A DNA stretch of 64,000 nt from Longimicrobiales bacterium (GTDB lineage: Bacteria > Gemmatimonadota > Gemmatimonadetes > Longimicrobiales > Gaopeijiaceae), in contig CBDCNQ010000002.1 of the NCBI GenBank assembly GCA_965219445.1, positions 416,001 through 480,000 of the forward strand, given 5' to 3'. This document shows, one piece after another, positions 437-51,863 of the stretch (position 1 is its first letter; every line of letters begins with the position of its first letter). The notes below the pieces were generated by a model. It did not search any database and was not told the origin of the DNA. It saw only the letters and a list, made by a program, of their open reading frames with translations. A program made the translations under genes and the position numbers.

Positions 437-880
437 TCAATCCAGGCGACTCCCCCTATCCGCCGTCAGGGGTTCACTCCACAACGGTGGCTTGTTGCGT
501 GCTTCCCACAGGTCGCCCCGCCGCTTCAGGTGCTCGGCTTCTTGGGTTTGGGTGAGGTTAGCCTGTTGTAGGTTGTCGTCTATCTCCCACAACTGGCGGT
601 CGGTGTCATTGAGGTGGAGATAGATGGCCGGAATTTCCTCCCAGCCGAGCCGTTGGGCTGCACGTAGGCGGTGATATCCCGCCACGAGGACCACACCACC
701 CTCATCGCCACCACATACGGAGATGGGCTGTTGTAGCCCGATGGCATCCATTGATGCAGCTAGCGCTACGACCCTGTCTTCGTCCAGCGGGCGTAGCCGG
801 GTCAGCACCATCACGTCATCCACGTACACCTTGGAGAGTATGACCTCTCGCTCGGCCTCCACCTTATCCTCGAAGGCTTC
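437..880 (-). pseudogene. ParB/Srx N-terminal domain protein, 5' end cut off by IS256 copy 1
   Basis: LAASMDAIGLQQPISV...LVAGYHRLRAAQRLGW...EIDDNLQ is a ParB-N motif; the RBS and first codons lie at 48793-48837. Confidence 0.8.
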
Positions 881-1041
881 GAGCTAGGATCAAAGGCATC
901 ATAGGGGCATGGCGACGGCTACCGGTACCGATCAGCAGCTAAGCAGCCCGAAGACGAAGAGGCGTTCTCCTCCGGGAACGGGTGCGCGTTCATCATTGTT
1001 CGCGCAAGGAAGCAACCCACCTATCCAAGAGGAGAACGCCG

Positions 1042-2097
1042 ATGGAGAGATATATCGGACTCGACGCACACGCGTCGAGCTGCACGCTGGGGATTGTAGG
1101 CCCCAGCGGCAAGCGCTTGGGCTCGCAGGTGGTGGAAACGAACGCGCGGGCGCTGATCGAGGTGCTGCGAGGGATTCCGAGGAACCGGCACTTGTGCCTG
1201 GAAGAAGGGACGCTGTCGGGGTGGCTGTACGAGGTGCTGGAGCCGCACGTGGAGGAGCTAACGGTGGCGGGGGTCGGCAAGAGCCGGGGCCCGAAGACCG
1301 ACAAGCTGGACGCGTTTGCCCTGGCGGAGAAGCTGCGGATCGGATCACTGGAGACGAGGGTCTACAAGAACCGGGGCCAGTTCAGGCGGCTGGGGGAACG
1401 GGCGAAGAGCTACGACTTCCTGGTCGGCGACACGGTGCGGGTGAAGAACCGGCTCAAGAGCGTGCTGCGCTCGAGAGGAGTGGCCTACGGCGCGGGGCGC
1501 TCGGTCTACTTGAAGCGCGACCGGGAGGAGTGGTTGGCCAAGCTGCCGGAAGCGAGCAGGACGACGGCCGGGTTGCTGTACGAGGAGCACGACGCACTCG
1601 TGGCATTGAGGGCGAAGGCCGAGAAGGCGTTGCTGGCGGAAGCACGCAAGCATCGAGAGTGGCATGTGCTGAAGACGTGCCCGGGTCTGGGTCCGATCCG
1701 GACGGCGGAGCTCCTGCCGGTGGTGGTGACGCCGTACCGGTTCCAGAGCCGGAGCAGATTCTGGGCGTACTGCGGACTGGGCGTGGTGATGCGGAGCTCG
1801 TCGGACTGGGTGCGGGGTCCGGGTGGGCGGTGGGTAAGGGAACCGGTACAGCAGACGCGGGGGCTGAATCGGAACTTCAACCACACGCTGAAGCGTGTGT
1901 TCAAGGGCGCAGCGACGACGGTGATCGGTCGGGCCGAAAACGAACCCTTGTACCGCCACTACGAGCGACTCCTGGAGGGGGGCACGAAGCCGAATCTGGC
2001 GAAGCTGACGATCGCGCGTCAGCTCGCCTCGATCGTGCTAGCGGTGTGGCGCACGGGCGAAGCGTACGACCCCAAGAGACTGGAAGCGACGGAGTAA
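1042..2097 (+). CDS. IS110-family DEDD recombinase/transposase
   Basis: YIGLD, LEEG, KTDKLDA (DEDD RuvC-like); CPGLGP and GLGVVMRSSS in the C-terminal domain; RBS GAGGAG before ATG 1042. Confidence 0.93.
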   Translation: MERYIGLDAHASSCTLGIVGPSGKRLGSQVVETNARALIEVLRGIPRNRHLCLEEGTLSGWLYEVLEPHVEELTVAGVGKSRGPKTDKLDAFALAEKLRIGSLETRVYKNRGQFRRLGERAKSYDFLVGDTVRVKNRLKSVLRSRGVAYGAGRSVYLKRDREEWLAKLPEASRTTAGLLYEEHDALVALRAKAEKALLAEARKHREWHVLKTCPGLGPIRTAELLPVVVTPYRFQSRSRFWAYCGLGVVMRSSSDWVRGPGGRWVREPVQQTRGLNRNFNHTLKRVFKGAATTVIGRAENEPLYRHYERLLEGGTKPNLAKLTIARQLASIVLAVWRTGEAYDPKRLEATE

Positions 2098-2164
2098 ACC
2101 GGCCTGGGATCGGCGAGCGTGGGGTCGAAAGCGGTCACAACATGGGGTCCGACGAAACGGAAGC

Positions 2165-2305
2165 GAACCGGTTACAGGGGACAGCATCCATACACACCGT
2201 GGGCCGGGGCAGAGAGCCCAAGCCCCCACTCAAAGGCTATGCACCCCTGGAAGAGCCGAACGAAGCGATGGGCCACAGAGTCCCAGATAGAAGGATGGTT
2301 CCCGC
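2165..2305 (+). ncRNA. Predicted seekRNA/bridge RNA of the IS1111-type element (boundaries approximate)
   Basis: Stem CAGGGG(2175-2180)/CCCCTG(2244-2249) encloses TACACACC (2191-2198) and TCAAAGG (2230-2236), which match the two strands of the target; ATAGAAGG (2287-2294) matches the donor end. Confidence 0.75.
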
Positions 2306-2464
2306 TCCAGAGCGGAGAACGCGACGGCTGTGAACGTCTTCCGGACTGCGATGCGGACCCTGCGAGCGCACCCCTCCCCACCCTGAGTCGTCGACCGGGC
2401 AATCCAAACCATGCGGACGCCGACGGTCAAAAAATGAGCCGACGGCGCGTGGGGAAGGTGCGTC

Positions 2465-2470
2465 TTGACC
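2465..2470 (+). promoter_or_regulatory. -35 box of the IS1111 circle-junction promoter
   Basis: On circularisation TTGACC is followed by exactly 17 nt (GCCAGCCCCATAGAAGG) and then CATCAT (897-902). Confidence 0.7.
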
Positions 2471-2583
2471 GCCAGCCCCATAGAAGGGTGTGTAAAAAAA
2501 GAGGCGACGTACCTTTCCGCTAGGTAGTAAGAAGTTAACCAGCGAATCCCGGGTGAGCGCCCGGGGGAAAGGAACGATGCCTC

Positions 2584-3828
2584 GTGAGGAAGAATATGGT
2601 GGGACCCGAGAGTGAGTCCAGCACGCCGACGTGGGAGTGCTTGGAAGCGCTGGTTCGTGAGAAGGCCCAGGAGATGGTCCAGCGGATTCTGGAGGAGGAA
2701 GTGACGGAGTTGCTCGGCCGGGAGAAGTCGGAGCGGAAGACGGTCGTAGACCCGGCGCCAGGCTACCGCAACGGCTACGGCAAGGCTCGGCGGCTGGCGA
2801 TGAGCTCGGGCACGATCATGCTCCGACGGCCCCGGGTTCGAGGCATTGAGGAGCGGTTCGAGAGTCGGGTGTTGCCGTTGTTCGCACGACGGACGAAGGA
2901 GGTGGGTGCTCTGCTTCCGGAGCTGTATCTGCACGGGCTGGCGGAGGGAGACTTCGAGCTGGCGATGCGGGGCCTGCTGGGCGAGGGGGCCCCGTTGTCG
3001 AAGTCTTCGATTTGGCGGCTGCGGGCGGGATGGACAAGGAAATTCGAGGAATGGTCGAAGCGCTCGCTGGCCGACCGTGAGGTCGTCTACGTCTGGGCGG
3101 ACGGGATCTACGTGAAGGCGGGGCTCGAGCGGGACAAGGCAGCGCTGCTGGTGGTTCTCGGTGCGATGCGAGATGGTACGAAGGAGGTGTTGGCCCTGAG
3201 ATCGGGCTACCGAGAGTCGGTCGAGTCCTGGTCCGAGGTGTTGCGGGATCTGAAGGCACGCGGCATCGAGGCGCCCCGGCTTTTGATGGCGGACGGCAAC
3301 GCGGCGATCTGGGGCGCAGTACGGCAGGTATGGCCTGAGGCGGGCGAGCAACGGTGCTGGAACCACAAGATGAGGAACGTGCTGGACCGGCTGCCTCAGC
3401 GGGAGCAGAGCGAGGCGAAGGACCTTCTCAGGACCGTGGTCTACGCACCGAGGCGGTCCGAGGCGCTGAAGGCCCGTGAGGCGTTCGCCAGGCGCTACAG
3501 ACCGTGGTATCCGAAGGCGGTGGATGTACTCGAGGACGACTGGGAGCGGATGGTGGCGTTCTACGACTTCCCCGAGGACCACTGGAAGCATCTACGCACG
3601 ACGAACGTGGTCGAGAGCCCCTTTGCCGCAGTACGGCTCAGGACAACGGCGGCGAAGCGCTTCAAGCGGGTCGAGAGCGCTACGGCGCTGATCTGGAAGC
3701 TGCTCTTGGTGGCGGAGAAGCGCTTCAGAAGGCTCGACGCTCCTCACCTCCTCAAGGACGTATTTGAAGGAAGAAAGTTCGAAGACGGAAAGCCCGTCTC
3801 AACCCAACAGCGGAAAAACGCCGCCTGA
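2584..3828 (+). CDS. IS256-family (Mutator-type DDE) transposase
   Basis: RNGYG, WADGIY, MADGN, QRCWNHK, LRTTNVVES motifs. Confidence 0.95.
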   Translation: MRKNMVGPESESSTPTWECLEALVREKAQEMVQRILEEEVTELLGREKSERKTVVDPAPGYRNGYGKARRLAMSSGTIMLRRPRVRGIEERFESRVLPLFARRTKEVGALLPELYLHGLAEGDFELAMRGLLGEGAPLSKSSIWRLRAGWTRKFEEWSKRSLADREVVYVWADGIYVKAGLERDKAALLVVLGAMRDGTKEVLALRSGYRESVESWSEVLRDLKARGIEAPRLLMADGNAAIWGAVRQVWPEAGEQRCWNHKMRNVLDRLPQREQSEAKDLLRTVVYAPRRSEALKAREAFARRYRPWYPKAVDVLEDDWERMVAFYDFPEDHWKHLRTTNVVESPFAAVRLRTTAAKRFKRVESATALIWKLLLVAEKRFRRLDAPHLLKDVFEGRKFEDGKPVSTQQRKNAA

Positions 3829-3858
3829 AACATTTACACACCTATTGACCCAACCTCC

Positions 3859-4360
3859 ACTGTTTGTCGCGGCCTGCTTCCTCGCCACATGCGAGGGCGA
3901 CGTCGGACCTACCGGACCAGCGGGGGCAGCGGGGCCAGCGGGGCCGACCGGGGACCCGGGAATTGAAAACTTCACCGCGGACCTGAACGAGGCGAATGTG
4001 ATGGTGCCTACCGGGAGCACCGCAACCGGCACCGCGAGCTTCTCCGTCGTCGGGCCAACTCTTCTGTACAGCATCGATGTCACGGGCCTCGCCGACGTGA
4101 CGGTGGTCCATATTCACGGTCCCGCCGCCGTGGGTGTCAATGCGGGCGTCATTCAGGACATCTGTAATGCCGGCGATGCGCCGCCGTGCAACACCACCAC
4201 GCCGCTTACCGGGGTCCTCGTGGCGGGCGCGGCCGCGCGCTCGAAGATCCCGTTCGATTCGCTGGTGGTTTTGATGCAGAACGGGAACGCCTACGTCAAC
4301 GTCCACACGACCGCAAACCCCGGAGGCGACATCCGAGGGCAGATCGCCACGGTTCCGTAA
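3859..4360 (+). pseudogene. CHRD-domain lipoprotein with short collagen-like Gly-X-Y tract; start of signal peptide removed by IS256
   Basis: HIHGP...AYVNVHT..NPGGDIRGQI is the CHRD signature; GPTGPAGAAGPAGPTGDPG tract; missing 5' part is at 51816-51852 (-). Confidence 0.85.
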
Positions 4361-4383
4361 ACTCCGGCCTGGATTTCCAGACA

Positions 4384-4438
4384 TGGGGGAATGAAGTGGG
4401 AGCAGGGCTGTCCGATGCCTGCTCCCACGTTTCCCCCA
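4384..4438 (+). terminator. Long GC-rich hairpin downstream of the CHRD gene, possible terminator
   Basis: GTGGGAGCAGG(4396-4406)/CCTGCTCCCAC(4418-4428) extended by TGGGGGAA/TTCCCCCA, then a T-rich stretch. Confidence 0.5.
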
Positions 4439-5802: not shown

Positions 5803-5948
5803 GGGCGTCTCCGTGACCCGAATGCCGGGTATGTCAGCCCGGATCAGCTGTTACACCCGGCCTCCCCCCCTTGTTACCCGCGGGCCAGGATGATTCTCCG
5901 GAGCCTTTGGGGCCTGGTCTGAGCCGACGGCGGGAGCCACCTTTGGGC

Positions 5949-6524
5949 ATGCTACTCGTCATCGATAATTACGATTCCTTCACTTTCAATCTCGTCCAGT
6001 TCCTGGGTGAATTAGGCGCGGATGTCGCAGTGTCCCGAAACGACGAACGAAGCGTCGAGGAGATTCGGGCGCTGGCGCCGTCGCGCGTGGTGGTCTCCCC
6101 TGGCCCGTGCACGCCGGCCGAAGCCGGCGTAAGCGTTGAGCTGTTCCGATCGCTGGATCCGTCGATACCCATGCTGGGCGTATGTTTGGGCCATCAGGCT
6201 TTGGGTGAAGCTTTCGGCGGGAGGACAGTGCGTGCGGAGCGGGTCATGCACGGAAAGACGGCACCGACCCGTCACACGGGGGAGGGAATTTTCCGAGGGA
6301 TCCCGTCGCCGTTCACGGTGGCGCGCTACCATTCCCTGGTGACGGATGCGGCCGTGCTACCGGAAAGCTTGATTTCGGTGGCGTGGAGTGATGGGAAGGA
6401 CGGAATCGATGAGATTCAAGCGATCCGGCACTGCGATCGGCCGGTTTGGGGCGTGCAGTTCCACCCAGAGTCGCTTTTTTCGGAGCATGGTAAGACTCTA
6501 CTGGGGAATTTCTTGACCCTTTGA
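5949..6524 (+). CDS. Anthranilate/aminodeoxychorismate synthase component II (TrpG/PabA glutamine amidotransferase)
   Basis: IDNYDSFT, SPGPC, GVCLGHQ, RYHSL, GVQFHPES. Confidence 0.93.
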   Translation: MLLVIDNYDSFTFNLVQFLGELGADVAVSRNDERSVEEIRALAPSRVVVSPGPCTPAEAGVSVELFRSLDPSIPMLGVCLGHQALGEAFGGRTVRAERVMHGKTAPTRHTGEGIFRGIPSPFTVARYHSLVTDAAVLPESLISVAWSDGKDGIDEIQAIRHCDRPVWGVQFHPESLFSEHGKTLLGNFLTL

Positions 6525-6601
6525 GCCCACCCGGACCGTCGCAGACTGTCCTATGTAGGGGTCAGGCGTTGCCAAGCCCACTCCGCTCCGGATAACTTGA
6601 C

Positions 6602-6616
6602 TGGCGTGATATTTGC
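6602..6616 (+). promoter_or_regulatory. Candidate sigma-54 (-24/-12) promoter upstream of kdsB
   Basis: TGGCGTGATATTTGC, i.e. GG-N10-GC with TTGC, 36 nt before the ATG. Confidence 0.4.
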
Positions 6617-6652
6617 GGCAACTGGCATCGCTTCGTGCCCGGGTCTGGGCCG

Positions 6653-7426
6653 ATGAGCAGTCGCGTTTTAGGCATTGTCCCGGCGCGGCTGGCGTCTACC
6701 CGCCTCCCCAACAAACCCCTCTATCCTCTTCTCGGCAGGCCCCTCATCGAGTGGGTCTGGCACCGTGTCGAAAACATGGGCGTCTTGGACCACGCGGTCG
6801 TCGCTACCGACAGCGAGGAGGTCGCCGAAGTTTGCCGATCGTTCGGTGCGCCGGTGGAGATGACCTCCGCTCGGCATCCCTCGGGTACGGACCGTGTGGC
6901 CGAGGTCGCGGCACGCCCCTCGTTCCACGGATACGACGTCATCGCCAATATTCAGGGTGATGAACCGTTGCTCCAGGAGCTCCACTTGGAAGCGGCTATT
7001 TCACTGGTCCGTGACGACCACTGGGAGATCGGCACATGCGCCACGCCGCTCCTCGATCGCGAGGCCCGACGGGATCCCTCGGTGGTCAAGGTCGTCCGGG
7101 CAGCCGGTGGGCGAGCCCTGTATTTTTCCCGGGCACCCATTCCGTACCAGCATGAAGGGAAGCCCTCGACGGAGGATCTGGGGCGCGAACCCTTCCTACG
7201 ACATATCGGAATTTACGCGTTTTCGCGGGATGCCCTGGCACGGTGGGTGGCGATCGCGCCGTCACCCCTCGAACGCTTGGAGAGCCTGGAGCAGTTGCGG
7301 CCACTCGAAGCCGGCATGCGCATCGGAGTCACCGTCGTGGGAGCGGCGGATCATGGAGTCGATACGCCCGCCGATGTCGTACGCATGGAGAATGCGTTGG
7401 CCGGAACTGAAACCCTTAGTGTTTAG
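6653..7426 (+). CDS. kdsB: 3-deoxy-manno-octulosonate cytidylyltransferase
   Basis: PARLASTRLPNKPL, SGTDR, NIQGDEP, LYFSRAPIP, LEQLR. Confidence 0.95.
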   Translation: MSSRVLGIVPARLASTRLPNKPLYPLLGRPLIEWVWHRVENMGVLDHAVVATDSEEVAEVCRSFGAPVEMTSARHPSGTDRVAEVAARPSFHGYDVIANIQGDEPLLQELHLEAAISLVRDDHWEIGTCATPLLDREARRDPSVVKVVRAAGGRALYFSRAPIPYQHEGKPSTEDLGREPFLRHIGIYAFSRDALARWVAIAPSPLERLESLEQLRPLEAGMRIGVTVVGAADHGVDTPADVVRMENALAGTETLSV

Positions 7427-9090
<1,664 letters not shown>

Positions 9091-9091
<1 letters not shown>

Positions 9092-9906
9092 TGCTCGACC
9101 GCTTCACGTTGATCGCCGGTCCTTGCGTTCTCGAAGATGATGGCCTCAACGTGGAGATCGGCCGACAGTTGGCTTGGCTTTCGTCCGCCGTGGGACTGCC
9201 CGTCGTGTTCAAGGCCTCTTTTGACAAAGCGAACCGCTCGAAAGCCGACTCACTTCGGGGCCCCGGCCTGGACCGCGGGCTCGAGCAATTGCGGCATGTG
9301 AAGAAGGAGACCGGTCTTCCGATCCTCACGGACGTCCATGAAGTTGATCAGGCGGCGGCGGCGGCGCGGGTCGCGGATATCCTTCAAATTCCTGCGTTTC
9401 TCTGTCGCCAGACCGACTTGATCCGCGCGGCGGGGGAGACGGGGAAGATCATCAACATCAAGAAGGGCCAGTGGATGACGCCAGAAGACATGCTCGGCGC
9501 GGTGGAGAAAGCCCGAGAGGCTGGGGCGCCAAGCGTGACGGTAACCGAGCGGGGCACATTTTTCGGATATGGAGACCTGATTGTCGACATGCGTTCGTTT
9601 CAGCGAATACGCACTGCGTGTGGGGTCTCCGTCATCTTCGACGGCACCCACTCTGTCCAGCGGCCGGGCCGCGCTTCCGGATCCAGCGGTGGTGATCCGG
9701 AATTTGTCCTGCCCCTCGTGCGCGCCTCCGTCGCCGCCGGGTGTGACGGCCTGTTCCTCGAGGTTCATCCGGATCCAGGGAGCGCCCCGTCCGATGGCGC
9801 CACGATGCTCCCACTGGACCACCTGAAGCCTCTCCTGGAGCAAGTCATCGCGATTCGAGCGGCCGTGGCCGAGGTCGCCCCCGGGGTTCCTGCTCCCGCC
9901 GGCTGA
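9091..9906 (+). CDS. kdsA: KDO 8-phosphate synthase
   Basis: IAGPCV, KASFDKANRS, QIPAFLCRQTDL, FDGTHSVQ. Confidence 0.96.
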
Positions 9907-9912
9907 CGACCC

Positions 9913-10482
9913 ATGGCCGGTCCGTCAGGGGACATCGATCCCCAAGTAGCGGGTCGCATACGGCTGGTCGTACTGGATGTGGATGGTGTCCTGACCGACG
10001 GTAGTGTCTACGTCGGCGCCCGGCCCGGCCAAGAGGCGATAGAACTCAAGCGCTTCGACATTCAGGATGGTTTGGGGATCAAGATGCTCCGCTGGGCGGG
10101 GATCGAGGTTGCCATCGTTTCGGGACGGGTCTCGGAGGCCACGGTGTGGCGCGCGCAAGAACTCGGGGTCGATGAGTGCCACCAAGACCCGGAGGCCAAG
10201 AAGCTACCGGTCGTCCAGAAACTGCTGGATGACCGCGGTCTCGGCTGGGAGGAGACCGCCATGGTAGGGGATGATTTGGCGGATCTTCCGGTTCTGAAGC
10301 GAGTCGCCCTCCCGGTCGCCGTCGCGAACGCCGTGCCGGAGGTCCATGCCGTGTCTCGCTGGACTACGGGGTCCTCCGGGGGGGATGGCGCCGTTCGAGA
10401 GTTTGCACGGGAATTGCTGACGGCGCGAGGAGAGTGGGACAAATTAGTTCAGGAGTATTTTAGAACCCGTTCCGAGAAATGA
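9913..10482 (+). CDS. kdsC: KDO 8-phosphate phosphatase (HAD family)
   Basis: LDVDGVLTDG, GDDLAD, GGDGAVRE. Confidence 0.93.
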   Translation: MAGPSGDIDPQVAGRIRLVVLDVDGVLTDGSVYVGARPGQEAIELKRFDIQDGLGIKMLRWAGIEVAIVSGRVSEATVWRAQELGVDECHQDPEAKKLPVVQKLLDDRGLGWEETAMVGDDLADLPVLKRVALPVAVANAVPEVHAVSRWTTGSSGGDGAVREFARELLTARGEWDKLVQEYFRTRSEK

Positions 10483-10642
10483 CGTGTTGGACGGCTTGAA
10501 AAGTGTCCGGCCCGCTGGGACGAAAGCCCACACGGCGGGTAGACAAGATGATTGGTCGCGCGGAAGTATCCCGAGTTCGGCTTGGAGGTCGTGTCGTCGG
10601 GGTCGGACATCTGAATGAATTTATGAGGTCAGGGACTCTATA

Positions 10643-11197
10643 GTGTTTATCAGTAGGCGTTTATGTGTGCAGATTTTGGCCGTCGGGCTCCTGTCGACGG
10701 CGTGCACGGAAGAACCCCCCAGGATGGTGGTCGATCCGGACCTGGAAGCCATGCAGGCCGACTACATCCTCTTCGGACTCACGGATAATGTGACCCGCGA
10801 GGGGATACGGGAGTTTGTCCTGGAGGCAGACACGGCCCTGGTTTTTCAAGACTCCACGATAGTCCTGCTTCGCGGAAACGTGACGTTGACGGCATACAAC
10901 GAGGAGCTCGGCACCGAGAAGGCGGTCGTGACCTCCGACCGGGGCCGGCTGGACAAGGGCTCGAACGAAATGTTGGCCGAAGGAAATGCGGTCCTGCTCA
11001 TCCGAGCGGATGGCCGGAGAATCGAGAGTTACGAGCTACGGTACTCGCCTTATGACCGATCGATCCGAAGCGACTCCGCCGTGGTGATGTACGACGGGGA
11101 CGACGTGGTGGAGGGCACGCGCTTCAACTCGGACCTGGACTTTGAGCAGGTCATCATTCAGAACGCTCGCACGCACGGAGGGACGGTCCGCTTCTGA
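10643..11197 (+). CDS. lptC: LPS export periplasmic protein LptC
   Basis: Lipoprotein-like signal, beta-rich jellyroll-type sequence, position before lptA/lptB. Confidence 0.75.
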   Translation: MFISRRLCVQILAVGLLSTACTEEPPRMVVDPDLEAMQADYILFGLTDNVTREGIREFVLEADTALVFQDSTIVLLRGNVTLTAYNEELGTEKAVVTSDRGRLDKGSNEMLAEGNAVLLIRADGRRIESYELRYSPYDRSIRSDSAVVMYDGDDVVEGTRFNSDLDFEQVIIQNARTHGGTVRF

Positions 11198-12798
11198 TGT
11201 CCAGCCGGGCCCTTCGCCTCCCTCTGGTGGGTCTCGCCGTTCTGTTCACGGGGATGGAGGCGGCCGGGCAGGAGGCGTCCTGTGACCTCAGCAGTTCACG
11301 TCGGGTCGTATCGACCCAGACGAATCAGGCGCGCGTCAGCTATGTCACCTCTCCCCGATTCGATTGTACCGACGGCACGGGCATCGAAGCGGACAGTTCT
11401 GTCACGTTCGAGGCCACGTCCTTCACCCAGCTCTTCGGCAACGTGATATTCCGAGACGGGCGAAGGGAATTGCTTGCCGACCGGGCACAGTACTTCAACC
11501 TCGTGGGCCGTCTCCAAGCTCAGGGCAACGTTCGGCTGACGAACTACGAGGACGGTTCCTCGCTGGCCGGCGAGGATCTCGTCCTTCTCCAAGAGGGCGA
11601 CGATCGAGCCGAGGAGGTCGTGACTGTGCGGGAGGGCCGGCCTCACGCCCGCCTCGTTCCAAAGGTGGCCCCGGACTCGACGACCATGGAGGGCTCGCCC
11701 GGGACCTCTCAACCGGAGAGGGTGGAGGGTGCGGCGCCTTACGAGGTCGATGCGGACCTGATCCACTTGGTGGGCGATCGCCTGTTCCAGGCACGGGGAC
11801 GCGTGGAGGTCACTCACGAATCCTTGCAGTCATACGGCGATTCGTTGGAATTTCAACAGGACATCGGGTGGCTGACGTTCTTCGACAACGCACGTGTTCT
11901 TTCTCAGGATACGGTGTCGGGGGACACACTGGACGTTCGAGGAGACACGATCACGATGGACGTGCCCGGCGATCAGATAGAGGAGATGGAAGCACGAGGC
12001 CGTGCACAGCTGCTGGCCGAGAACGTGGATATGCGAGGACCGAGGATTCGCCTCGTCTTCGAAGACGACGAGTTGGCACGGGTGTTCGCCGTTCGAGGGG
12101 CCGCCGAAGAGGCTCCCGCTCCTGTGATCGGGGGGCCGGACCAAACCCCTTCGCCTGCCAATCCGGTCCAGCCCCAGGCGGTGGCCCAGGACTTTGTCCT
12201 GACCGGTGACTCCATCGAGGCCGACTTCCTGGAGGGCGGGTTGGAGCGGGTAGTCTCCACTGGGGCCGCCCGCGGCGTATCGACCGCAAGGGACTCACTC
12301 AACACGGATGCCACTGACGAGCTGATCCGGTCCGACTGGATCGAGGGCGACACCATCACGGCGACCTTCCAACCGGCTTCGGCGGATCCCGGTGATCCCC
12401 CCACAGATGGACCGGAGGACGCAGAGCCGCGGAGGCGGGAGATGGACCTGCTTGTCGCGCGTGGTCAGGCGCGTAGCTTTTACCGGTCGGCCCCGGATTC
12501 GGCGGCCGCGGGCGTAGAAACAGGACCTCGGGCGCTCGAGCTCAACTACGTCATCGGCGATGAGGTGCGTCTCTACATGAAGGATGGCGAGGTCGAGCGA
12601 ATGGAGGTGGACGATCCTACGGGAGTCTACCTGCAGCCGACACGCCAAGGGGCACCGGCGGCCCAGCCCCCCGATTCGGTGGGCGCGACTCCTGGATCCT
12701 CGGGGGCGGATGACGCACCTCCCGCAGCCCCCGCGGCGGATGATGTGCCGCCAGCGGGCGGCGATGGGCCACCGGGTGGGAATGGAAGTACACGGTGA
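11197..12798 (+). CDS. Extended OstA/LptA-like beta-jellyroll protein
   Basis: Signal peptide, repeated A-x-GNV/GDTI strands, lies between lptC and lptB; Pro/Ala-rich tail. Confidence 0.7.
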
Positions 12799-13649
12799 GT
12801 GACCTCGTCTCGGGACCCGAGCCGGAGGAGGGTATCGAGGGGCTATCGTCACCGGCCGGGCCTGCTACGGACCTCGAGGTGCCGAGCCGCCTCTGGGGTG
12901 AGTCCCTGACGAAGGTTTACCGGAAGCGGCGCGTCGTGGACGATATCGCCATCTCCGTGACCCAGGGTGAGATCGTCGGCTTGTTGGGTCCGAACGGAGC
13001 AGGGAAAACCACCACGTTTTACATGATCGTGGGACTGATTCCGCCCGATCGCGGCCAAGTATTCCTCGACGAAGAAGACTTGACCGATGTCCCGATGTAC
13101 CGGCGAGCTCGTAAGGGCTTGGGGTATTTGGCCCAGGAACCCTCCGTCTTCAGGAAGCTCACGGTCGAACAAAATGTGAAGGCGATCTTGGAAACCATGA
13201 ACCTCTCCAAGGAGGAGGAAGCGGCACGCCTCGAGCAATTACTGGAAGAGCTTTCCCTCACCGCCCTACGAGGGAACAGGGCGTATTCGCTTTCGGGAGG
13301 GGAGCGAAGACGTCTCGAGATCACCCGGGCCCTAGTGCAGCAGCCCAAATTCATGCTTCTGGACGAGCCATTTGCTGGCATCGACCCCATCGCGGTTCAC
13401 GACATCCAGGACATCGTGGGCTCCCTCAAGGGACGGGGCATAGGCGTCATCATCTCCGACCACAATGTTGAACAAACCCTGGAGATCGTCGATCGTGCGT
13501 ACATTATGTATGAGGGGCAGATTCGCATCAGTGGCACTGTTTCCGAACTGGTGTGGGACGACGAGGTGGCAAGAATCTACCTGGGCCCCGCGCTGACCGA
13601 GCGAATGAGGGGCCGGTTCGGGAGGCATCGCGGTGGAGAGGCGGTGTAG
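12795..13649 (+). CDS. lptB: LPS export ABC ATPase
   Basis: [37 protein letters not shown]. Confidence 0.96.
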
Positions 13650-13696
13650 CGGCATAGGTTCCAGGCATAAGGGAGTTCAGGGCAACCGAAAATTTC

Positions 13697-15193
13697 ATGA
13701 GCGGATTCAGCACCAAGCTCTACCAGAGCCAGCAGCTCCGCCAGGAGATGAAGATCAATCCACGCCTGTATCAGGCGATGGAGTTGCTCTATATGCCCCT
13801 ACTCGACCTGCAACAGCATCTCAAGGGGGAGTTGGAGGAAAATCCGTTCCTCGAGATGACCGAGGCGGACGTCGAGGATGAGGTAGAACTCAAGGAAGAG
13901 GGCAAAGACGATCCGCCCGATGACGAGATCGACTGGGAAGCGATCCTTCTGGACGGTTTCGAGGTGGGTGGGCGTCGCGAGCAGTTCGAGCCGGTGGAGC
14001 TGTATCAACGAGCACCCGTCGAGACGACGGATCTCCGGGATCACCTTTACGGCCAACTCCGGCTCCTTGACCTCACCGAGCGTGAGGCGCGCCTCGGAGA
14101 GGAGATCATTGGGAACGTAAACGACGCCGGTACGTTGACGTGCGAACTCGATGACGTCGTGAAGGGGGTGAATGCGTGGTTGGAGGATGTGCGTCCGACT
14201 GCGCAGAAAGAGATCGACGCCCTCGATGACTCGGAGGAGGCCCAGGCGGAGTTGGATGCGATGTTCGAGCCGTACAGCCTGCCCGAGGCGGAGGCGATGC
14301 TCAGAAAGGTTCAGGCCTTCGATCCGCCGGGCGTAGCCGGGCGAGATCTTCGGGAATCTATCCTGATTCAGCTGCGGATTCTTGGGAGGTGCGAATCGCT
14401 AACTTATGAGATCGCCGAGAGCCACTTCGACGATCTGGTCAACCATCGCTGGGCCGAGGTTGCGAGAGAGCTGAGCCTCAAGCCCCTTGACATCCAGAGC
14501 GTAGCCGACGAGATCGCCAAGCTCGATCCCAAGCCCGGTATGAAGTATTCGGCGGACCCCGAGCGATACATCGTGCCCGATCTGATCGTCGAAAAAATTG
14601 ACGGCGAGTACATGGTTTTCGTCAACGACACGAGCCTCCCCCGGCTCCGGATCGCGCAGTCCTACCAGGGCTTGGTGCAGAACAAGGCGCTCTTCAAGGG
14701 CGAAAACAAGGAATTCATCTCGAGAAAGCTCAACTCGGCGAACTGGATCATTCAGGCGATCGAACAGCGGCGCCAGACGATGTTGAAGGTCATGGCGTTC
14801 ATCGTCGACCGGCAGCGTGAGTTCTTCGAGCATGGTGTCCAGCATTTGAGACCGCTGACGCTCCGGGAAGTCGCCGATCACATCGAGATGCATGAGTCGA
14901 CCGTGTCGAGGGTCACGAATGAAAAATTCGTGCAGACTCCGCGCGGGGTGTTTCCGCTGAAATACTTCTTTTCGAGTGGCTTGGCGACGACCAGCGGCGA
15001 AGACATCTCAGCGAGGGGAGTCCGGGACAAAATCCAGAAGCTCGTCGAAGAAGAAGATGTCCATAAGCCCCTGACGGACCAGAAGCTCGTTGAACTGCTC
15101 AAGACCGACGGAGTCAAGATCGCACGAAGAACGGTCGCGAAGTACCGGGATCAGCTCGGTCTTCTTCCCGCCCGTATGCGAAAGCGGGTTTGA
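13697..15193 (+). CDS. rpoN: RNA polymerase sigma-54 factor
   Basis: Gln/Leu-rich region I, HESTVSR helix-turn-helix, RpoN box ARRTVAKYR. Confidence 0.98.
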   Translation: MSGFSTKLYQSQQLRQEMKINPRLYQAMELLYMPLLDLQQHLKGELEENPFLEMTEADVEDEVELKEEGKDDPPDDEIDWEAILLDGFEVGGRREQFEPVELYQRAPVETTDLRDHLYGQLRLLDLTEREARLGEEIIGNVNDAGTLTCELDDVVKGVNAWLEDVRPTAQKEIDALDDSEEAQAELDAMFEPYSLPEAEAMLRKVQAFDPPGVAGRDLRESILIQLRILGRCESLTYEIAESHFDDLVNHRWAEVARELSLKPLDIQSVADEIAKLDPKPGMKYSADPERYIVPDLIVEKIDGEYMVFVNDTSLPRLRIAQSYQGLVQNKALFKGENKEFISRKLNSANWIIQAIEQRRQTMLKVMAFIVDRQREFFEHGVQHLRPLTLREVADHIEMHESTVSRVTNEKFVQTPRGVFPLKYFFSSGLATTSGEDISARGVRDKIQKLVEEEDVHKPLTDQKLVELLKTDGVKIARRTVAKYRDQLGLLPARMRKRV

Positions 15194-17324: not shown

Positions 17325-17343
17325 ACGTGGACTGCGCTGAACG

Positions 17344-22671: not shown

Positions 22672-22689
22672 AGGCCTGTCGAAGAAGCC

Positions 22690-22895
22690 TCTCATTGGTT
22701 GGTACGTATGAGGTCATGCCCCGTTGGGGGCGCATGAATTGGCTGAAGGTCGGCTGGGGACGGGAGCCGGTGATCATCCGGTACGGGGAGCCGATCCAGT
22801 TCGGGAGACACGATGATCGAGCAAGCCGCGAGCGAGCACGACCCAAGGCAACGGTGAGACTCGAGAACGCGTTACGGTCGGTGATGGCACAATGA
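22690..22895 (+). pseudogene. Possible C-terminal remnant of a PlsC-type acyltransferase
   Basis: GTYEVMPR....REPVIIRYGEPI resembles the end of lysophospholipid acyltransferases; no catalytic HxxxxD upstream. Confidence 0.4.
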
Positions 22896-23593: not shown

Positions 23594-23678
23594 TCTCCCC
23601 ATGTTGTGCTCCAGGGTCTTCCGAAGGGTCGGGGTTGGCATGGAACGCTGTGGGCGTGTGATCTCTATAGAACATGAT

Positions 23679-28362: not shown

Positions 28363-28364
28363 CA

Positions 28365-38050: not shown

Positions 38051-38239
38051 GATCGCCCGGTAGAAGGCCAGGCCGAGGAGGATTCGTAGCGTCAAGCGTG
38101 ATGTCTAATAAAAGTCCCAAATCCCCATGGATACGCCCGATCACGACTTTAAAGTTACATAACCCTTGCGTCCGAACCAACGACCGTCGTATCCTTGGGG
38201 CGACACTTGTAAGGTACAAATCGCCCTGTGAGGGTCAAA

Positions 38240-38527
38240 ATGGGACATTTAAGTTACACATCCGCAACCGATCGGGAGGTGATGCAGGAGCTCGGGCGCC
38301 GCCTGGTGGCGCTCCGCGAATCTCAGCGCCTGACGATGCTGGAGGCCGCCGAGCGGGCGGCCCTGTCTCGCCAGACGCTGTACCGGGCGGAGCGAGGGCA
38401 GAACCCTACGCTCGTTACGATCGTGCGACTGCTTCGAGTCTACGGCCGGCTCGCTGCCCTGGAGAGCTTCATTCCCGAGCCCGAGATCTCCCCAATGGCC
38501 GTCCTCGAAGAGCGGCGGGCGACGTAG
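38240..38527 (+). CDS. XRE helix-turn-helix protein, HipB-like antitoxin
   Basis: LT..EAAERAALSRQTLYRAE.G; immediately upstream of hipA. Confidence 0.85.
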   Translation: MGHLSYTSATDREVMQELGRRLVALRESQRLTMLEAAERAALSRQTLYRAERGQNPTLVTIVRLLRVYGRLAALESFIPEPEISPMAVLEERRAT

Positions 38528-38528
38528 C

Positions 38529-39818
38529 GTGGCCACCGTCCTTGCCGACGCCGAGGTCCGCCTCTGGGGCGAGACGGTGGGTGCGGTCGTGGAGCTCGAC
38601 AACGGCCGCATCCTCTTCGAGTACGCCGACGCTTTCCGGCGCCGCGGGCTGGACATCTCCCCCATCCACCTTCCCACATCCCGGGAGGGTCCCCTCGGCT
38701 TCGACGAGCTCCTGAGGCGGCCGGCCTTTCGGGGCCTCCCCGGTGTGCTCGCCGACTCACTCCCCGACGCGTTCGGCAACAAGGTCATCCGGGCATATTT
38801 CGAGGCCCGCGGCGAGTCGGCCCGGGCGCTCAGTCCCGTCCAGCGACTGCTGTACGTCGGGGAGCGGGCCCTGGGTGCGCTCACCTTTCACCCCGCTGAG
38901 GACATTCCGACCCGCGAGGCCGAGCTCGAGTCGCTCGAGGTCGCCGCCCTGGTCCGTGACGCGCGGCGCATCGTCCAGGGCGAGCCCGAGGTGGCGATCC
39001 CCGAGATCTATCGCATCGGGTCCTCGGCGGGTGGCATGCGTCCGAAGGCCGTCATCCTCTACGACCCGGCGGACGGCTCCATCCGATCCTCGAACGCGCC
39101 GCCTGGGCCCGAGGATCTCCCCTGCATCCTCAAGTTCGATGGCGTGGGTGACGGCGTGACTCCCGACCGCCTCGGGGCCCCCATGCCCTTTAACCGCGTG
39201 GAGGCCGCGTACTCGGAGATGGCGCGGGCGGCGGGACTCGAGGCGACCCGTGTCGAGGTCCTCGAGCACAAAGGTTACGCACACCTCCTCATCCGCCGCT
39301 TCGACCTCGAGGACGGCGAGCGGATTCACCAACACACCCTCGGGGGACTCGTCCACGTCGACTACAACGACCGCGGGGCGAGCTCGTACGAAGAATACCT
39401 ACGGACCGTCTTCAGGCTCGGGATGACGTACGGTCCTCTCGAGCAGGCGTACCGCCGGATGGTCTTCAACGTGCTCGCCATCAACCAGGACGATCACGTG
39501 AAGAATCTGTCCTTCCACATGCGCCCCGACGGGGAGTGGTCCCTGGCGCCGGCATACGACCTCACCTTCGCCCGCGGAGTGGACTGGACGTCGGAGCACC
39601 AGATGCGCGTGCGCGACAAGACTGCCGGCATCCGTGAGTCCGACCTTCTCGCCGTGGCGAGAGAGTTTGGCGTGAAGAAGCCGGAGCGCATCCTCGAGGA
39701 GACCCGTTCGGCCGTGGCCGGCTGGGAGGGCTACGCTCAGGAATTCGCGGTCCCGCTGTCCACGGTCGTCGACGTGCGGAAGGCGTTGAACGAGCGGGTC
39801 AGGTCGCTGGAGGTCTAA
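38529..39818 (+). CDS. hipA: HipA-family kinase toxin
   Basis: DSLPD.FG, SAGGMRPK, RRFD, NQDDHVKNLSF, LAPAYD. Confidence 0.92.
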   Translation: MATVLADAEVRLWGETVGAVVELDNGRILFEYADAFRRRGLDISPIHLPTSREGPLGFDELLRRPAFRGLPGVLADSLPDAFGNKVIRAYFEARGESARALSPVQRLLYVGERALGALTFHPAEDIPTREAELESLEVAALVRDARRIVQGEPEVAIPEIYRIGSSAGGMRPKAVILYDPADGSIRSSNAPPGPEDLPCILKFDGVGDGVTPDRLGAPMPFNRVEAAYSEMARAAGLEATRVEVLEHKGYAHLLIRRFDLEDGERIHQHTLGGLVHVDYNDRGASSYEEYLRTVFRLGMTYGPLEQAYRRMVFNVLAINQDDHVKNLSFHMRPDGEWSLAPAYDLTFARGVDWTSEHQMRVRDKTAGIRESDLLAVAREFGVKKPERILEETRSAVAGWEGYAQEFAVPLSTVVDVRKALNERVRSLEV

Positions 39819-44681: not shown

Positions 44682-44790
44682 TCAGCATCACCAGGGCTCC
44701 CTGCCTTCGCGTGGCATTGCCATCCTTTCGGTAGGAACAAGACTGTCCTCTCAAACAGCCTAAGTCCAAGTAGAGCTTCCACTTCCCGAA

Positions 44791-44836
44791 GCGTCCCGGG
44801 CAGGAATCGAACCTGCGACCTACTGCTTAGAAGGCA
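44791..44836 (-). tRNA. 3' fragment of tRNA-Arg(TCT), probable att site
   Basis: TGC-CTTCTAA-GCAGT-AGGTC-GCAGG-TTCGATT-CCTGC-CCGGGAC-GC gives anticodon loop, T-arm and 3' acceptor strand; the 5' acceptor strand and D-arm are absent. Confidence 0.8.
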
Positions 44837-44985
44837 AGCTCAAATGGGTACCAGATTCCGACAAGAAACAGTATAAACCATTGGCGGGCTGCACGATATG
44901 CCGTTGTCCGCCTGATCCAATGTCGGAATCCACCGTCCTGAATCGACAGTAACCGACCGTTCCTACATTCTTGGGGTCTACTCGT

Positions 44986-48339: not shown

Positions 48340-48644
48340 CTTAGGGCAAGCCAGAGCCTACTTCGGCACCACGGAACGAAGTTCGCCACAAACTCTTGGA
48401 GCCTGAGGAAGCTGTCGAGGCCAAAGAGCCTGTCAGCGTTGAATCGATTGCAGCGCGGCCACTCCACCACCACCCGCCTCACCGTCTCGCTCCAAAACAG
48501 AAGCGGCCACTCCCCCGCTCTGTCCGTCTCCACCTCGAACTCCTCGTGCTCACGCATCATGGAGAGGAACCACTCGTGTGCGTCACGGGCTGTGTGGATG
48601 CCGTAGGAACGTGATAGGCCGAAGGAGACCTCGGTGGGTGCCAT
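48336..48644 (-). CDS. Hypothetical protein
   Basis: 102-aa ATG ORF only; no recognisable motif. Confidence 0.3.
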   Translation of the reverse strand: MAPTEVSFGLSRSYGIHTARDAHEWFLSMMREHEEFEVETDRAGEWPLLFWSETVRRVVVEWPRCNRFNADRLFGLDSFLRLQEFVANFVPWCRSRLWLALS

Positions 48645-48792
48645 GCCCGAGTCAGGATATTCGCAGCGGACGGTTAAGCGGGGGTTCCGAGTCGATGGCT
48701 GCAGCTGAACTCAGCAGCGACTGACCAAAATTGTTGTCTGTAGAATATTACGTGTTTCCCCCACCTGACGTAGAATTGCACGGACCCAATCA

Positions 48793-48837
48793 GAGGAGGC
48801 GTTAGTCAGTGAAGTACTTCACTACGGGAGAAGCCTT
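48793..48837 (+). pseudogene. Detached RBS and first codons of the ParB-like gene
   Basis: GAGGAGG, then GTG 48809 reading VKYFTTGEA; continues in frame at 872 (-) as F-EDKVEAERE. Confidence 0.85.
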
Positions 48838-48867
48838 GGAGGTTGGGTCAATAGGTGTGTAAATGTT

Positions 48868-50112
48868 TCAGGCGGCGTTTTTCCGCTGTTGGGTTGAGAC
48901 GGGCTTTCCGTCTTCGAACTTTCTTCCTTCAAATACGTCCTTGAGGAGGTGAGGAGCGTCGAGCCTTCTGAAGCGCTTCTCCGCCACCAAGAGCAGCTTC
49001 CAGATCAGCGCCGTAGCGCTCTCGACCCGCTTGAAGCGCTTCGCCGCCGTTGTCCTGAGCCGTACTGCGGCAAAGGGGCTCTCGACCACGTTCGTCGTGC
49101 GTAGATGCTTCCAGTGGTCCTCGGGGAAGTCGTAGAACGCCACCATCCGCTCCCAGTCGTCCTCGAGTACATCCACCGCCTTCGGATACCACGGTCTGTA
49201 GCGCCTGGCGAACGCCTCACGGGCCTTCAGCGCCTCGGACCGCCTCGGTGCGTAGACCACGGTCCTGAGAAGGTCCTTCGCCTCGCTCTGCTCCCGCTGA
49301 GGCAGCCGGTCCAGCACGTTCCTCATCTTGTGGTTCCAGCACCGTTGCTCGCCCGCCTCAGGCCATACCTGCCGTACTGCGCCCCAGATCGCCGCGTTGC
49401 CGTCCGCCATCAAAAGCCGGGGCGCCTCGATGCCGCGTGCCTTCAGATCCCGCAACACCTCGGACCAGGACTCGACCGACTCTCGGTAGCCCGATCTCAG
49501 GGCCAACACCTCCTTCGTACCATCTCGCATCGCACCGAGAACCACCAGCAGCGCTGCCTTGTCCCGCTCGAGCCCCGCCTTCACGTAGATCCCGTCCGCC
49601 CAGACGTAGACGACCTCACGGTCGGCCAGCGAGCGCTTCGACCATTCCTCGAATTTCCTTGTCCATCCCGCCCGCAGCCGCCAAATCGAAGACTTCGACA
49701 ACGGGGCCCCCTCGCCCAGCAGGCCCCGCATCGCCAGCTCGAAGTCTCCCTCCGCCAGCCCGTGCAGATACAGCTCCGGAAGCAGAGCACCCACCTCCTT
49801 CGTCCGTCGTGCGAACAACGGCAACACCCGACTCTCGAACCGCTCCTCAATGCCTCGAACCCGGGGCCGTCGGAGCATGATCGTGCCCGAGCTCATCGCC
49901 AGCCGCCGAGCCTTGCCGTAGCCGTTGCGGTAGCCTGGCGCCGGGTCTACGACCGTCTTCCGCTCCGACTTCTCCCGGCCGAGCAACTCCGTCACTTCCT
50001 CCTCCAGAATCCGCTGGACCATCTCCTGGGCCTTCTCACGAACCAGCGCTTCCAAGCACTCCCACGTCGGCGTGCTGGACTCACTCTCGGGTCCCACCAT
50101 ATTCTTCCTCAC
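48868..50112 (-). CDS. IS256-family transposase
   Basis: Protein identical to 2584-3828. Confidence 0.95.
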   Translation of the reverse strand: MRKNMVGPESESSTPTWECLEALVREKAQEMVQRILEEEVTELLGREKSERKTVVDPAPGYRNGYGKARRLAMSSGTIMLRRPRVRGIEERFESRVLPLFARRTKEVGALLPELYLHGLAEGDFELAMRGLLGEGAPLSKSSIWRLRAGWTRKFEEWSKRSLADREVVYVWADGIYVKAGLERDKAALLVVLGAMRDGTKEVLALRSGYRESVESWSEVLRDLKARGIEAPRLLMADGNAAIWGAVRQVWPEAGEQRCWNHKMRNVLDRLPQREQSEAKDLLRTVVYAPRRSEALKAREAFARRYRPWYPKAVDVLEDDWERMVAFYDFPEDHWKHLRTTNVVESPFAAVRLRTTAAKRFKRVESATALIWKLLLVAEKRFRRLDAPHLLKDVFEGRKFEDGKPVSTQQRKNAA

Positions 50113-50390
50113 GAGGCATCGTTCCTTTCCCCCGGGCGCTCACCCGGGATTCGCTGGTTAACTTCTTACTACCTAGCGGAAAGGTACGTCGCCTCTTTTT
50201 TTACACACCCTTCTATGGGGCTGGCGGTCAAGACGCACCTTCCCCACGCGCCGTCGGCTCATTTTTTGACCGTCGGCGTCCGCATGGTTTGGATTGCCCG
50301 GTCGACGACTCAGGGTGGGGAGGGGTGCGCTCGCAGGGTCCGCATCGCAGTCCGGAAGACGTTCACAGCCGTCGCGTTCTCCGCTCTGGA

Positions 50391-50531
50391 GCGGGAACCA
50401 TCCTTCTATCTGGGACTCTGTGGCCCATCGCTTCGTTCGGCTCTTCCAGGGGTGCATAGCCTTTGAGTGGGGGCTTGGGCTCTCTGCCCCGGCCCACGGT
50501 GTGTATGGATGCTGTCCCCTGTAACCGGTTC
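50391..50531 (-). ncRNA. Predicted seekRNA/bridge RNA (copy 2)
   Basis: Mirror of 2165-2305. Confidence 0.75.
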
Positions 50532-50598
50532 GCTTCCGTTTCGTCGGACCCCATGTTGTGACCGCTTTCGACCCCACGCTCGCCGATCCCAGGCCGGT

Positions 50599-51654
50599 TT
50601 ACTCCGTCGCTTCCAGTCTCTTGGGGTCGTACGCTTCGCCCGTGCGCCACACCGCTAGCACGATCGAGGCGAGCTGACGCGCGATCGTCAGCTTCGCCAG
50701 ATTCGGCTTCGTGCCCCCCTCCAGGAGTCGCTCGTAGTGGCGGTACAAGGGCTCGTCCTCGGCCCGACCGATCACCGTCGTCGCTGCGCCCTTGAACACA
50801 CGCTTCAGCGTGTGGTTGAAGTTCCGATTCAGCCCCCGCGTCTGCTGTACCGGTTCCCTTACCCACCGCCCACCCGGACCCCGCACCCAGTCCGACGAGC
50901 TCCGCATCACGACGCCCAGTCCGCAGTACGCCCAGAACCTGCTCCGGCTCTGGAACCGGTACGGCGTCACCACCACCGGCAGGAGCTCCGCCGTCCGGAT
51001 CGGACCCAGACCCGGGCACGTCTTCAGCACATGCCACTCTCGATGCTTGCGTGCTTCCGCCAGCAACGCCTTCTCGGCCTTCGCCCTCAATGCCACGAGT
51101 GCGTCGTGCTCCTCGTACAGCAACCCGGCCGTCGTCCTGCTCGCTTCCGGCAGCTTGGCCAACCACTCCTCCCGGTCGCGCTTTAAGTAGACCGAGCGCC
51201 CCGCGCCGTAGGCCACTCCTCTCGAGCGCAGCACGCTCTTGAGCCGGTTCTTCACCCGCACCGTGTCGCCGACCAAGAAGTCGTAGCTCTTCGCCCGTTC
51301 CCCCAGCCGCCTGAACTGGCCCCGGTTCTTGTAGACCGTCGTCTCCAGTGATCCGATCCGCAGCTTCTCCGCCAGGGCAAACGCGTCCAGCTTGTCGGTC
51401 TTCGGGCCCCGGCTCTTGCCGACCCCCGCCACCGTCAGCTCCTCCACGTGCGGCTTCAGCACCTCGTACAGCCACCCCGACAGCGTCCCTTCTTCCAGGC
51501 ACAAGTGCCGGTTCCTCGGAATCCCTCGCAGCACCTCGATCAGCGCCCGCGCGTTCGTTTCCACCACCTGCGAGCCCAAGCGCTTGCCGCTGGGGCCTAC
51601 AATCCCCAGCGTGCAGCTCGACGCGTGTGCGTCGAGTCCGATATATCTCTCCAT
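50599..51654 (-). CDS. IS110-family DEDD recombinase/transposase
   Basis: As copy 1 with three amino-acid differences (LEPH/LKPH, ETRV/ETTV, AENE/AEDE). Confidence 0.93.
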   Translation of the reverse strand: MERYIGLDAHASSCTLGIVGPSGKRLGSQVVETNARALIEVLRGIPRNRHLCLEEGTLSGWLYEVLKPHVEELTVAGVGKSRGPKTDKLDAFALAEKLRIGSLETTVYKNRGQFRRLGERAKSYDFLVGDTVRVKNRLKSVLRSRGVAYGAGRSVYLKRDREEWLAKLPEASRTTAGLLYEEHDALVALRAKAEKALLAEARKHREWHVLKTCPGLGPIRTAELLPVVVTPYRFQSRSRFWAYCGLGVVMRSSSDWVRGPGGRWVREPVQQTRGLNRNFNHTLKRVFKGAATTVIGRAEDEPLYRHYERLLEGGTKPNLAKLTIARQLASIVLAVWRTGEAYDPKRLEATE

Positions 51655-51815
51655 CGGCGTTCTCCTCTTGGATAGGTGGGTTGCTTCCTTGCGCGAACAA
51701 TGATGAACGCGCACCCGTTCCCGGAGGAGAACGCCTCTTCGTCTTCGGGCTGCTTAGCTGCTGATCGGTACCGGTAGCCGTCGCCATGCCCCTATGATGC
51801 CTTTGATCCTAGCTC

Positions 51816-51863
51816 CAAACAGTGCCACGTATCGAACAAAATAGGGTCTCATGAGACCTCCTC
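51816..51863 (-). pseudogene. Detached RBS and signal-peptide start of the CHRD lipoprotein
   Basis: GAGGAGG, ATG 51852 reading MRPYFVRYVALF; continues in frame at 3867 as VAACFLATC. Confidence 0.85.

Follow-up and report, generated by a model that had tools for sequence, protein, structure and literature searches.

Two inverted element copies with exchanged target duplications

Why should two copies of a 3-kb insertion element, lying in opposite orientation around 45 kb of DNA, each be flanked by one half of the other's target duplication? The question is raised by a stretch of 64,000 nucleotides (C2:416001-480000, referred to below as the window) from a Longimicrobiales bacterium, whose 4.56-Mb, 63% G+C genome is assembled in 5 contigs with a completeness of 91.8%. 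A preliminary description of the window had read the flanks as the trace of two insertions followed by inversion of the 45 kb between them. The data presented here support an inversion of this segment relative to the ancestral order, the assembled order being the derived one, and the flip was probably brought about by recombination between the two copies.

A single long inverted repeat pair was found in the window. Positions 881-3858 could be aligned with the reverse complement of 48838-51815 with 10 mismatches in 2,978 aligned bases, all of them at window positions 1240-1944. As described below, the repeat is a nested element composed of an IS256-type and an IS110-type part. The IS256 parts of the two window copies are identical, and the 10 differences form one block in the IS110 part. 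The four flanking 8-mers named in the preliminary description were all present at the coordinates given there: AAGGCTTC at 873-880, ACTGTTTG at 3859-3866, GAAGCCTT at 48830-48837 and CAAACAGT at 51816-51823. The element length of 2,978 bp had to be corrected, because copies elsewhere in the genome with intact duplications place the end one base sooner, at ...CCAACCTC, which makes the element 2,977 bp long. Copy 1 therefore occupies 881-3857 (plus strand) and copy 2 occupies 48839-51815 (minus strand).

With the corrected end, site B has a perfect 9-bp duplication, CACTGTTTG, one copy of which is at 3858-3866 (plus strand) and the other at 51816-51824 (minus strand; CAAACAGTG on the plus strand). 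The duplication of site A is the 8-bp AAGGCTTC, with its left copy at 873-880 (plus strand) and its right copy, in reverse complement, at 48830-48837. Adjoining the right copy is one extra base, window position 48838 (together 48830-48838, minus strand), a C on the element strand that sits between the right end of the element and the duplication. When the segment 3858-48838 is turned back, both duplications are restored (9 of 9 bases at site B; 8 of 8 at site A, with one odd base in addition). The earlier statement that flipping would give each copy a perfect 8-bp duplication was thus right as to the exchange, which is real, and wrong as to the lengths, site B having 9 bp and site A 8 bp plus the odd C. 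The chance of two independent 8-mer matches was calculated to be about (4^-8)^2 = 2e-10. Given the sequence of the empty site A (see below), the extra C was not templated by the target. In the simplest reading the copy that landed at A came from B and would have brought along the first flanking base of B; alternatively, site A may have a 9-bp duplication with one mismatch.

Two genes split by the insertions

At both sites a gene is cut in two, and its parts now lie far apart. The body of a ParB_N-domain gene (codons 8-154; 437-880, minus strand) was severed at site A from its ribosome-binding site GAGGAGG, GTG start and first 7 codons (MKYFTTG), which are found at 48793-48829 on the plus strand, i.e. 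48 kb from the body and on the other strand. Similarly, the body of a CHRD-domain lipoprotein gene (3860-4360, plus strand) was severed at site B from its ribosome-binding site, ATG (51852-51850) and first codons (MRPYFVRYV), located at 51825-51863 on the minus strand. Joining the halves in silico yielded an open reading frame (ORF) for a 154-aa ParB_N protein and one for a 176-aa CHRD lipoprotein complete with ribosome-binding site, start and lipobox; the latter begins with MRPYFVRYVALFVAACFLATC, a lipoprotein signal.

The joined reading frames agree with database proteins. The 154-aa protein P0121, from other assemblies, matches the 147-aa ParB_N fragment with 100% identity, and P0121 and its cluster mates from other assemblies begin with MKYFTTGEAFEDK. 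The CHRD homologues P0001-P0004 (86-89% identity) and P0143, which are named Gemmatimonadetes or Longimicrobiales, begin with MRPYFVRS.ALFVA.CFL. No intact copy of the ParB_N or the CHRD gene was found in this genome. A CHRD homologue of one related genome (locus L010 of G006) resembles it in ribosome-binding site and start but is in a different frame, for which reason it was left out of the evidence.

Signs of a derived gene order

Comparison with related genomes, which the preliminary description had proposed, gave the un-inverted order at junction B in all five relatives. In each of them the blocks matching window ~4.7-18 kb and ~53-64 kb are on opposite strands and 1.1-2.7 kb apart, whereas in the window they share a strand and are separated by ~35 kb (48 kb between their element-side ends). 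Within the same genus, the inner-left and outer-right blocks are at 760096-773708 (minus) and 775367-786361 (plus) in G005, at 1839279-1852340 (minus) and 1853840-1864820 (plus) in G006, and at 2019614-2033386 (plus) and 2007572-2018459 (minus) in G007. They are likewise adjacent and on opposite strands in two members of the same family, G014 and G016. The inverted block is colinear with the relatives up to ~window 35.8 kb.

For junction A, information came from a sequencing run of another study that carries another organism label (X20). One of its contigs (1,214 nt, depth 6.6) matches 48532-48842 (plus) with letters 1-311, with one mismatch at the first element base, and 880-1 (minus) with letters 299-1174, without a mismatch. 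The two alignment rows were paired on the basis of length, depth and complementary coordinates. The contig represents site A in the empty state and in the un-inverted adjacency, 48532-48837 being joined to 880-1. The intact protein P0121 of other assemblies attests to the un-inverted order at junction A as well. Among the contigs listed for this run, none reaches 3858 or 51824 at site B.

The base composition shows the same discontinuity. GC skew is +0.055 inside the segment (4.7-36 kb) as opposed to -0.069 outside on the right, where it stays between -0.04 and -0.08 over the next 50 kb, and the sign changes at copy 2. Genes between 5871 and 24245 are all on the plus strand, those between 56671 and 63852 all on the minus strand, and turning the segment back renders both skew and gene direction continuous. 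Synteny, the split genes, the X20 contig and the switch in GC skew thus support, as four independent lines, the inversion of the 45 kb after two insertions, as originally proposed.

Is the assembled orientation correct?

It could be argued that the un-inverted order is the true or the majority one, and that the assembly took a wrong path through the two 3-kb repeats or represents a mixed population. Sequencing runs were examined from this point of view: 24 were found, all in the form of k-mer contigs, and the contigs of four of them were aligned to both copies. In run X19, which contains 98% of the sampled words and is probably the source, contigs cross all four junctions between flank and element; run X22 shows junctions J1 and J3, and run X24 shows J2 and J3. 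The k-mer contigs extend ~29 nt into the element, and the two copies begin to differ 360 nt in. Because the contigs end before this point, neither the assembled nor the alternative linkage is visible in them. Inversion leaves the four junctions unchanged, therefore only molecules spanning the 3 kb can reveal the orientation.

The junction sequences and the contigs examined are accordingly compatible with either orientation. An artefact would also be in keeping with the incomplete state of the genome, with the flank word depth of ~4-8 in the likely source run and with the non-matching flanks of 14 of 24 copies (see below), some of them across contigs, which path errors could explain as well. 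Against it stands the quality of the assembly: 4.56 Mb are contained in 5 contigs, and none of the 16 full and 5 solo copies of the element is at a contig end, from which we infer that the reads were longer than the repeat. Moreover, the exchanges form closed reciprocal sets (one pair and two three-cycles), as real crossovers do. For these reasons an artefact or a mixed population seems quite unlikely.

The repeat is an IS110-type element nested in an IS256-type element

The label IS256 given to the repeat in the preliminary description applies to one half of it. An IS256-family part is present, and the repeat as a whole is a nested composite: an IS256-family element of 1,387 bp whose left inverted repeat is interrupted by an IS110/IS1111-type element of ~1.59 kb. 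In copy 1 the IS256-type left inverted repeat is represented by its outer 12 nt at 881-892, followed by the inserted IS110/IS1111-type element at ~893-2483 (recombinase ORF 982-2097) and the remainder of the IS256-family element at 2484-3857 (transposase ORF 2584-3828). Copy 2 contains the IS256-type transposase ORF at 48868-50112 and the IS110-type ORF at 50599-51714.

The product of ORF 982-2097 matched PF01548 and PF02371 with 39.1 and 32.4 bits, both above the cut-off, as an IS110-family DEDD recombinase. With NCBIfam NF033542 it scored 112.5 bits, which is below the cut-off of 140, so the insert is a distant member of the family. ORF 2584-3828 encodes a Mutator-type DDE transposase (NF033543 (IS256), 295 bits at a cut-off of 150; PF00872, 199.8 bits). 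Imperfect terminal inverted repeats of ~26 bp, 8-9-bp duplications, a size of ~1.3-1.5 kb and one ORF are characteristic of the IS256 family. In agreement with this, solo copies are 1,387 bp long and have matching ends (e.g. C4:199262-200648), and ten copies have intact duplications of 8 or 9 bp; the nested insert brings the window copies to 2,977 bp, beyond the size typical of IS256. Among transposase loci, the closest ones bear the title Longimicrobiales metagenome-assembled genome (MAG). No match to Rfam was found over window 800-3950, and none to the element in the plasmid collection.

The 3-kb unit occurs 16 times in full in the genome, and its right-hand ~1.38 kb is found alone in 5 further, solo copies. 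The solo copies start with GAGCTAGGATC(A), followed directly by (G)AAGGGTGTGTAAA, and read GAGCTAGGATCA directly ahead of the position equivalent to 2484. In the 3-kb unit 1.59 kb lie between the GAGCTAGGATC piece (881-892) and the AAGGGTGTGTAAA piece (from 2484). Since the pieces are contiguous in the solo copies and separated in the unit, the IS110/IS1111-type element must have inserted after approximately nucleotide 12 of the left inverted repeat. This position is identical in 16/16 full copies (window 893-2483 and 50213-51803). The five solo copies, which are without the insert, display three slightly differing sequences at the empty insert site.

The IS256 part is identical in 11 of the 16 full copies (reference copy counted). 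The IS110 parts are mosaic, 15/15 other copies differing from copy 1 by 8-30 bases, and the one copy whose IS256 part is diverged by 154 bases carries a common IS110 haplotype. Mosaic IS110 parts beside mostly identical IS256 parts suggest that the two elements move separately, as would be the case if the insert homed independently.

Since the IS110-family recombinase gene seems intact in both copies, the enzyme itself might have inverted the segment by recombining the ends of its own element in the inverted pair. Inversion of DNA is within the capacity of bridge recombinases when their sites are suitably oriented. Recombination of a left with a right end, however, would leave a restored solo IS256 and a doubled IS110 junction, and both copies show the normal nested structure instead; recombination of like ends is not known as a programmed reaction. 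The structure of the two copies led us to reject this route, which is highly improbable.

Flanks of the other copies

Twenty-four copies in the genome have two ends. Ten of these have kept their own duplication, seven of 8 bp, two of 9 bp and one with an extra base at the left junction; simple insertion is therefore the normal outcome for this element. The copy at C5:1611126-1614615 has an intact 8-bp duplication, TGCGCCTG, with one extra T at the left junction. This T is a second one-base anomaly at an element end, like the C at site A.

The other 14 two-ended copies (contigs C2-C5) lack a duplication of their own, and for 10 of the 14 the left-flank 8-mer recurs at the right end of another copy. 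Closed three-copy cycles were found in contigs C4/C5 (C4:199262, C4:326794 and C5:654041) and C3/C4 (C3:152179, C3:162158 and C4:1221680), and exchanges between copies of the same orientation were detected for C2:522562 with C2:618515 and for C4:199262 with C4:329775. Three-copy cycles and same-orientation exchanges cannot be produced by a single intramolecular transposition and need recombination, so copies in this assembly have commonly recombined with one another. A simple reciprocal exchange is seen once in the genome, in the window pair.

In addition, CTCCCCAG, which flanks a truncated copy at C2:272168 on the left, recurs as the right flank of the inverted copy at C2:582205, the window lying between the two. 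This match hints at a second inversion of ~310 kb that encloses the window.

How the segment was turned

The mechanism we favour is homologous recombination between two copies that had already been inserted, each with a target duplication; it probably accounts for the flip. Recombination is preferred because IS256 is reported to move via circles and to have served as the crossover point of a 1-Mb inversion (PMC5065196), because the element normally leaves simple insertions (the intact duplications described above), and because the same genome contains exchanges that require recombination. Probably, the element first inserted at site B, in the 5' end of the CHRD lipoprotein gene, generating the 9-bp duplication. 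Next, a copy is likely to have inserted at site A, in codon 8 of the ParB_N gene, at a distance of 45 kb and in the opposite orientation; it generated an 8-bp duplication and perhaps brought with it the base C that adjoins the element at site B. Crossing over at some point in the 3 kb common to both copies would finally have inverted the intervening DNA and swapped the right-hand flanks. The crossover point cannot be mapped, since the IS256 parts of the window copies are identical. The odd C, together with a weak hint from another assembly, suggests that B was occupied before A: in the assembly with a 411,574-nt contig the ParB_N protein is intact and the CHRD gene call is truncated.

Several points weigh against this reconstruction. 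Copies 1 and 2 differ at 10 bases of the IS110 part, and three other copies differ from copy 1 by only 8-9. Junction A showed no synteny with the five relatives, both of its sides being strain-specific DNA. The order of the insertions is deduced from the odd C and the weak hint just mentioned. All four junctions between flank and element would look alike whichever way the segment lies, and none of the contigs runs through an entire 3-kb copy, so that the assembled orientation itself has to be taken as provisional. Finally, exactly the same flanks are predicted by a one-step intramolecular replicative transposition (PMC4471558), and from sequence two insertions followed by recombination cannot be told apart from that event.

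In such an event, transposition 'in trans', the copy at site B would have attacked site A on the same molecule, at once creating the second, inverted copy, inverting the intervening DNA and splitting both duplications. The pattern described for it, in which each copy has one old and one new flank and the duplications are inverted (PMC4471558), is what we observe. Three further observations speak for it: the 5' haplotype of unit positions 37-314 is exclusive to the two window copies, the odd C at A would fit a right-end cut one base beyond the element at site B, and site A is empty in a close strain (run X20).

The mode of transposition argues the other way. IS256 is reported to form circles with a 6-bp junction, indicative of a copy-out-paste-in process that yields simple insertions (PMC5065196). 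If the one-step reaction were the rule, copies would be expected to keep their own duplications rarely; here 10/24 keep them, whereas for IS26 none was found in the work described in PMC4471558. In addition, the IS110-type insert splits the left inverted repeat of both copies, and the three-cycles and same-orientation pairs require recombination anyway. The circle-based, copy-out-paste-in mechanism is reported for the IS256 family as a whole. Taken together, these arguments make the one-step route unlikely. Its more specific form, in which the nested IS256::IS110 composite with its split left repeat produced the 45-kb inversion together with the second copy in a single event, appears rather improbable. 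Were it true, an IS256-family transposase could run a replicative, Shapiro-type reaction, and the 12-nt outer repeat remnant would be usable 1.6 kb from the rest of the end.

The haplotype of unit positions 37-314 is shared by 2/16 copies, the two in the window, while in the block 360-1064 the window copies differ, copy 2 having the common type. The difference in this block looks like later gene conversion from another copy. To call the two plainly sister copies would go too far, three other copies being equally close to copy 1 overall.

Content of the segment and consequences of the flip

The genes of the segment are mostly of the housekeeping type. It contains genes for a glutamine amidotransferase, kdsB, pyrG, a kdsA-like gene, a HAD phosphatase gene, lptC, an ABC ATPase gene and rpoN, several glycosyltransferase genes, genes for an MFS transporter, a Crp-type regulator and a GGDEF protein, as well as hipBA, panD, panB and panC. 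The toxin-antitoxin module, a hipB-like helix-turn-helix (HTH) gene with a hipA kinase gene, is at 38228-39818 in the strain-specific right part. The flip has likely turned ~18 same-strand genes (5871-24245), a run that includes pyrG, kds and lpt genes, rpoN and glycosyltransferase genes, off the G-rich, presumably leading, strand onto the other strand. The ParB_N and CHRD genes would already have been broken by the insertions, so the main effect of the flip itself would be the reversal of core genes relative to the local strand bias. This suggests that the flip is recent and at best neutral.

Strain-specific DNA without synteny in the five relatives comprises window 36-48.8 kb and C2:398001-416872; in the outer-left 18.9 kb (L009) and the inner-right 13 kb only scattered repeats and mobile genes match the relatives. 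Before the flip, the two sides of site A would have formed one accessory island of at least 30 kb. This putative island would have contained the ParB_N gene, hipBA, the GGDEF protein gene and, oddly, panDBC. No tRNA gene was found in the window.

Sequences of 50-230 bp at window ~48456-48686 and ~56576-56662 and at L009:12437-12551 and L009:15366-15580 match dozens of places in G005-G007 with 76-94% identity and are probably small non-autonomous repeats. A ~200-bp place in G006 (C2:1806244-1806457) is matched by both L009:15080-15287 and window 44783-44955, but on opposite strands; these two sequences thus make up a further inverted repeat pair, straddling copy 1.

The inversion belongs to an ordinary, well-known type of bacterial rearrangement and raises no new mechanistic question. 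Its value is that of a clean, fully readable case of an expanding insertion element reshaping a chromosome: two genes were knocked out, and ~18 core genes, among them those for CTP synthase and sigma-54, 3-deoxy-D-manno-octulosonate (KDO) genes and genes for lipopolysaccharide (LPS) transport, were turned against the local strand bias, in a lineage where exchanged flanks are seen at over half of the element's copies. Annotators should take it as a warning that a gene order obtained from environmental long reads, as here, may represent one among several that coexist in the population.

Comparison with known systems

Exchanged target duplications around inverted insertion sequence copies are a standard footprint, of which the window provides a new instance in an uncultured lineage. 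The closest parallel is Staphylococcus aureus OC8, where a 1-Mb inversion is flanked by IS256 copies and homologous recombination was proposed (PMC5065196). There as here, oppositely oriented IS256-family copies bound the inverted segment, and the inversion was deduced from a relative and from the insertion-site sequences. Unlike the OC8 case as described in that report, the present one involves 45 kb in an uncultured bacterium, the IS256-type repeat has an IS110-type passenger, and the flanks were exchanged cleanly and reciprocally without an accompanying deletion.

The products of trans transposition of IS26 and Tn4401 likewise consist of two inverted copies with inverted DNA between them and with duplications that are split and inverted (PMC4471558). 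Unlike IS26 and Tn3-family elements, which form cointegrates, the IS256 family is reported to use circles, and many copies in this genome keep intact duplications. Exchanged duplications are also described as the footprint of recombination between inverted copies of Galileo in Drosophila, although both transposon and host are eukaryotic there (PMC2775673).

The nested make-up of the repeat is more unusual than the inversion. It has a counterpart: IS4321 and IS5075, members of the IS1111 group, home into the terminal inverted repeats of Tn21-family transposons. As with these, an IS110-family element is found at one fixed terminal-repeat position in nearly all copies. The host element in our case, in contrast, is an IS256-family insertion sequence, and the likeness concerns the make-up of the repeat, not the inversion.

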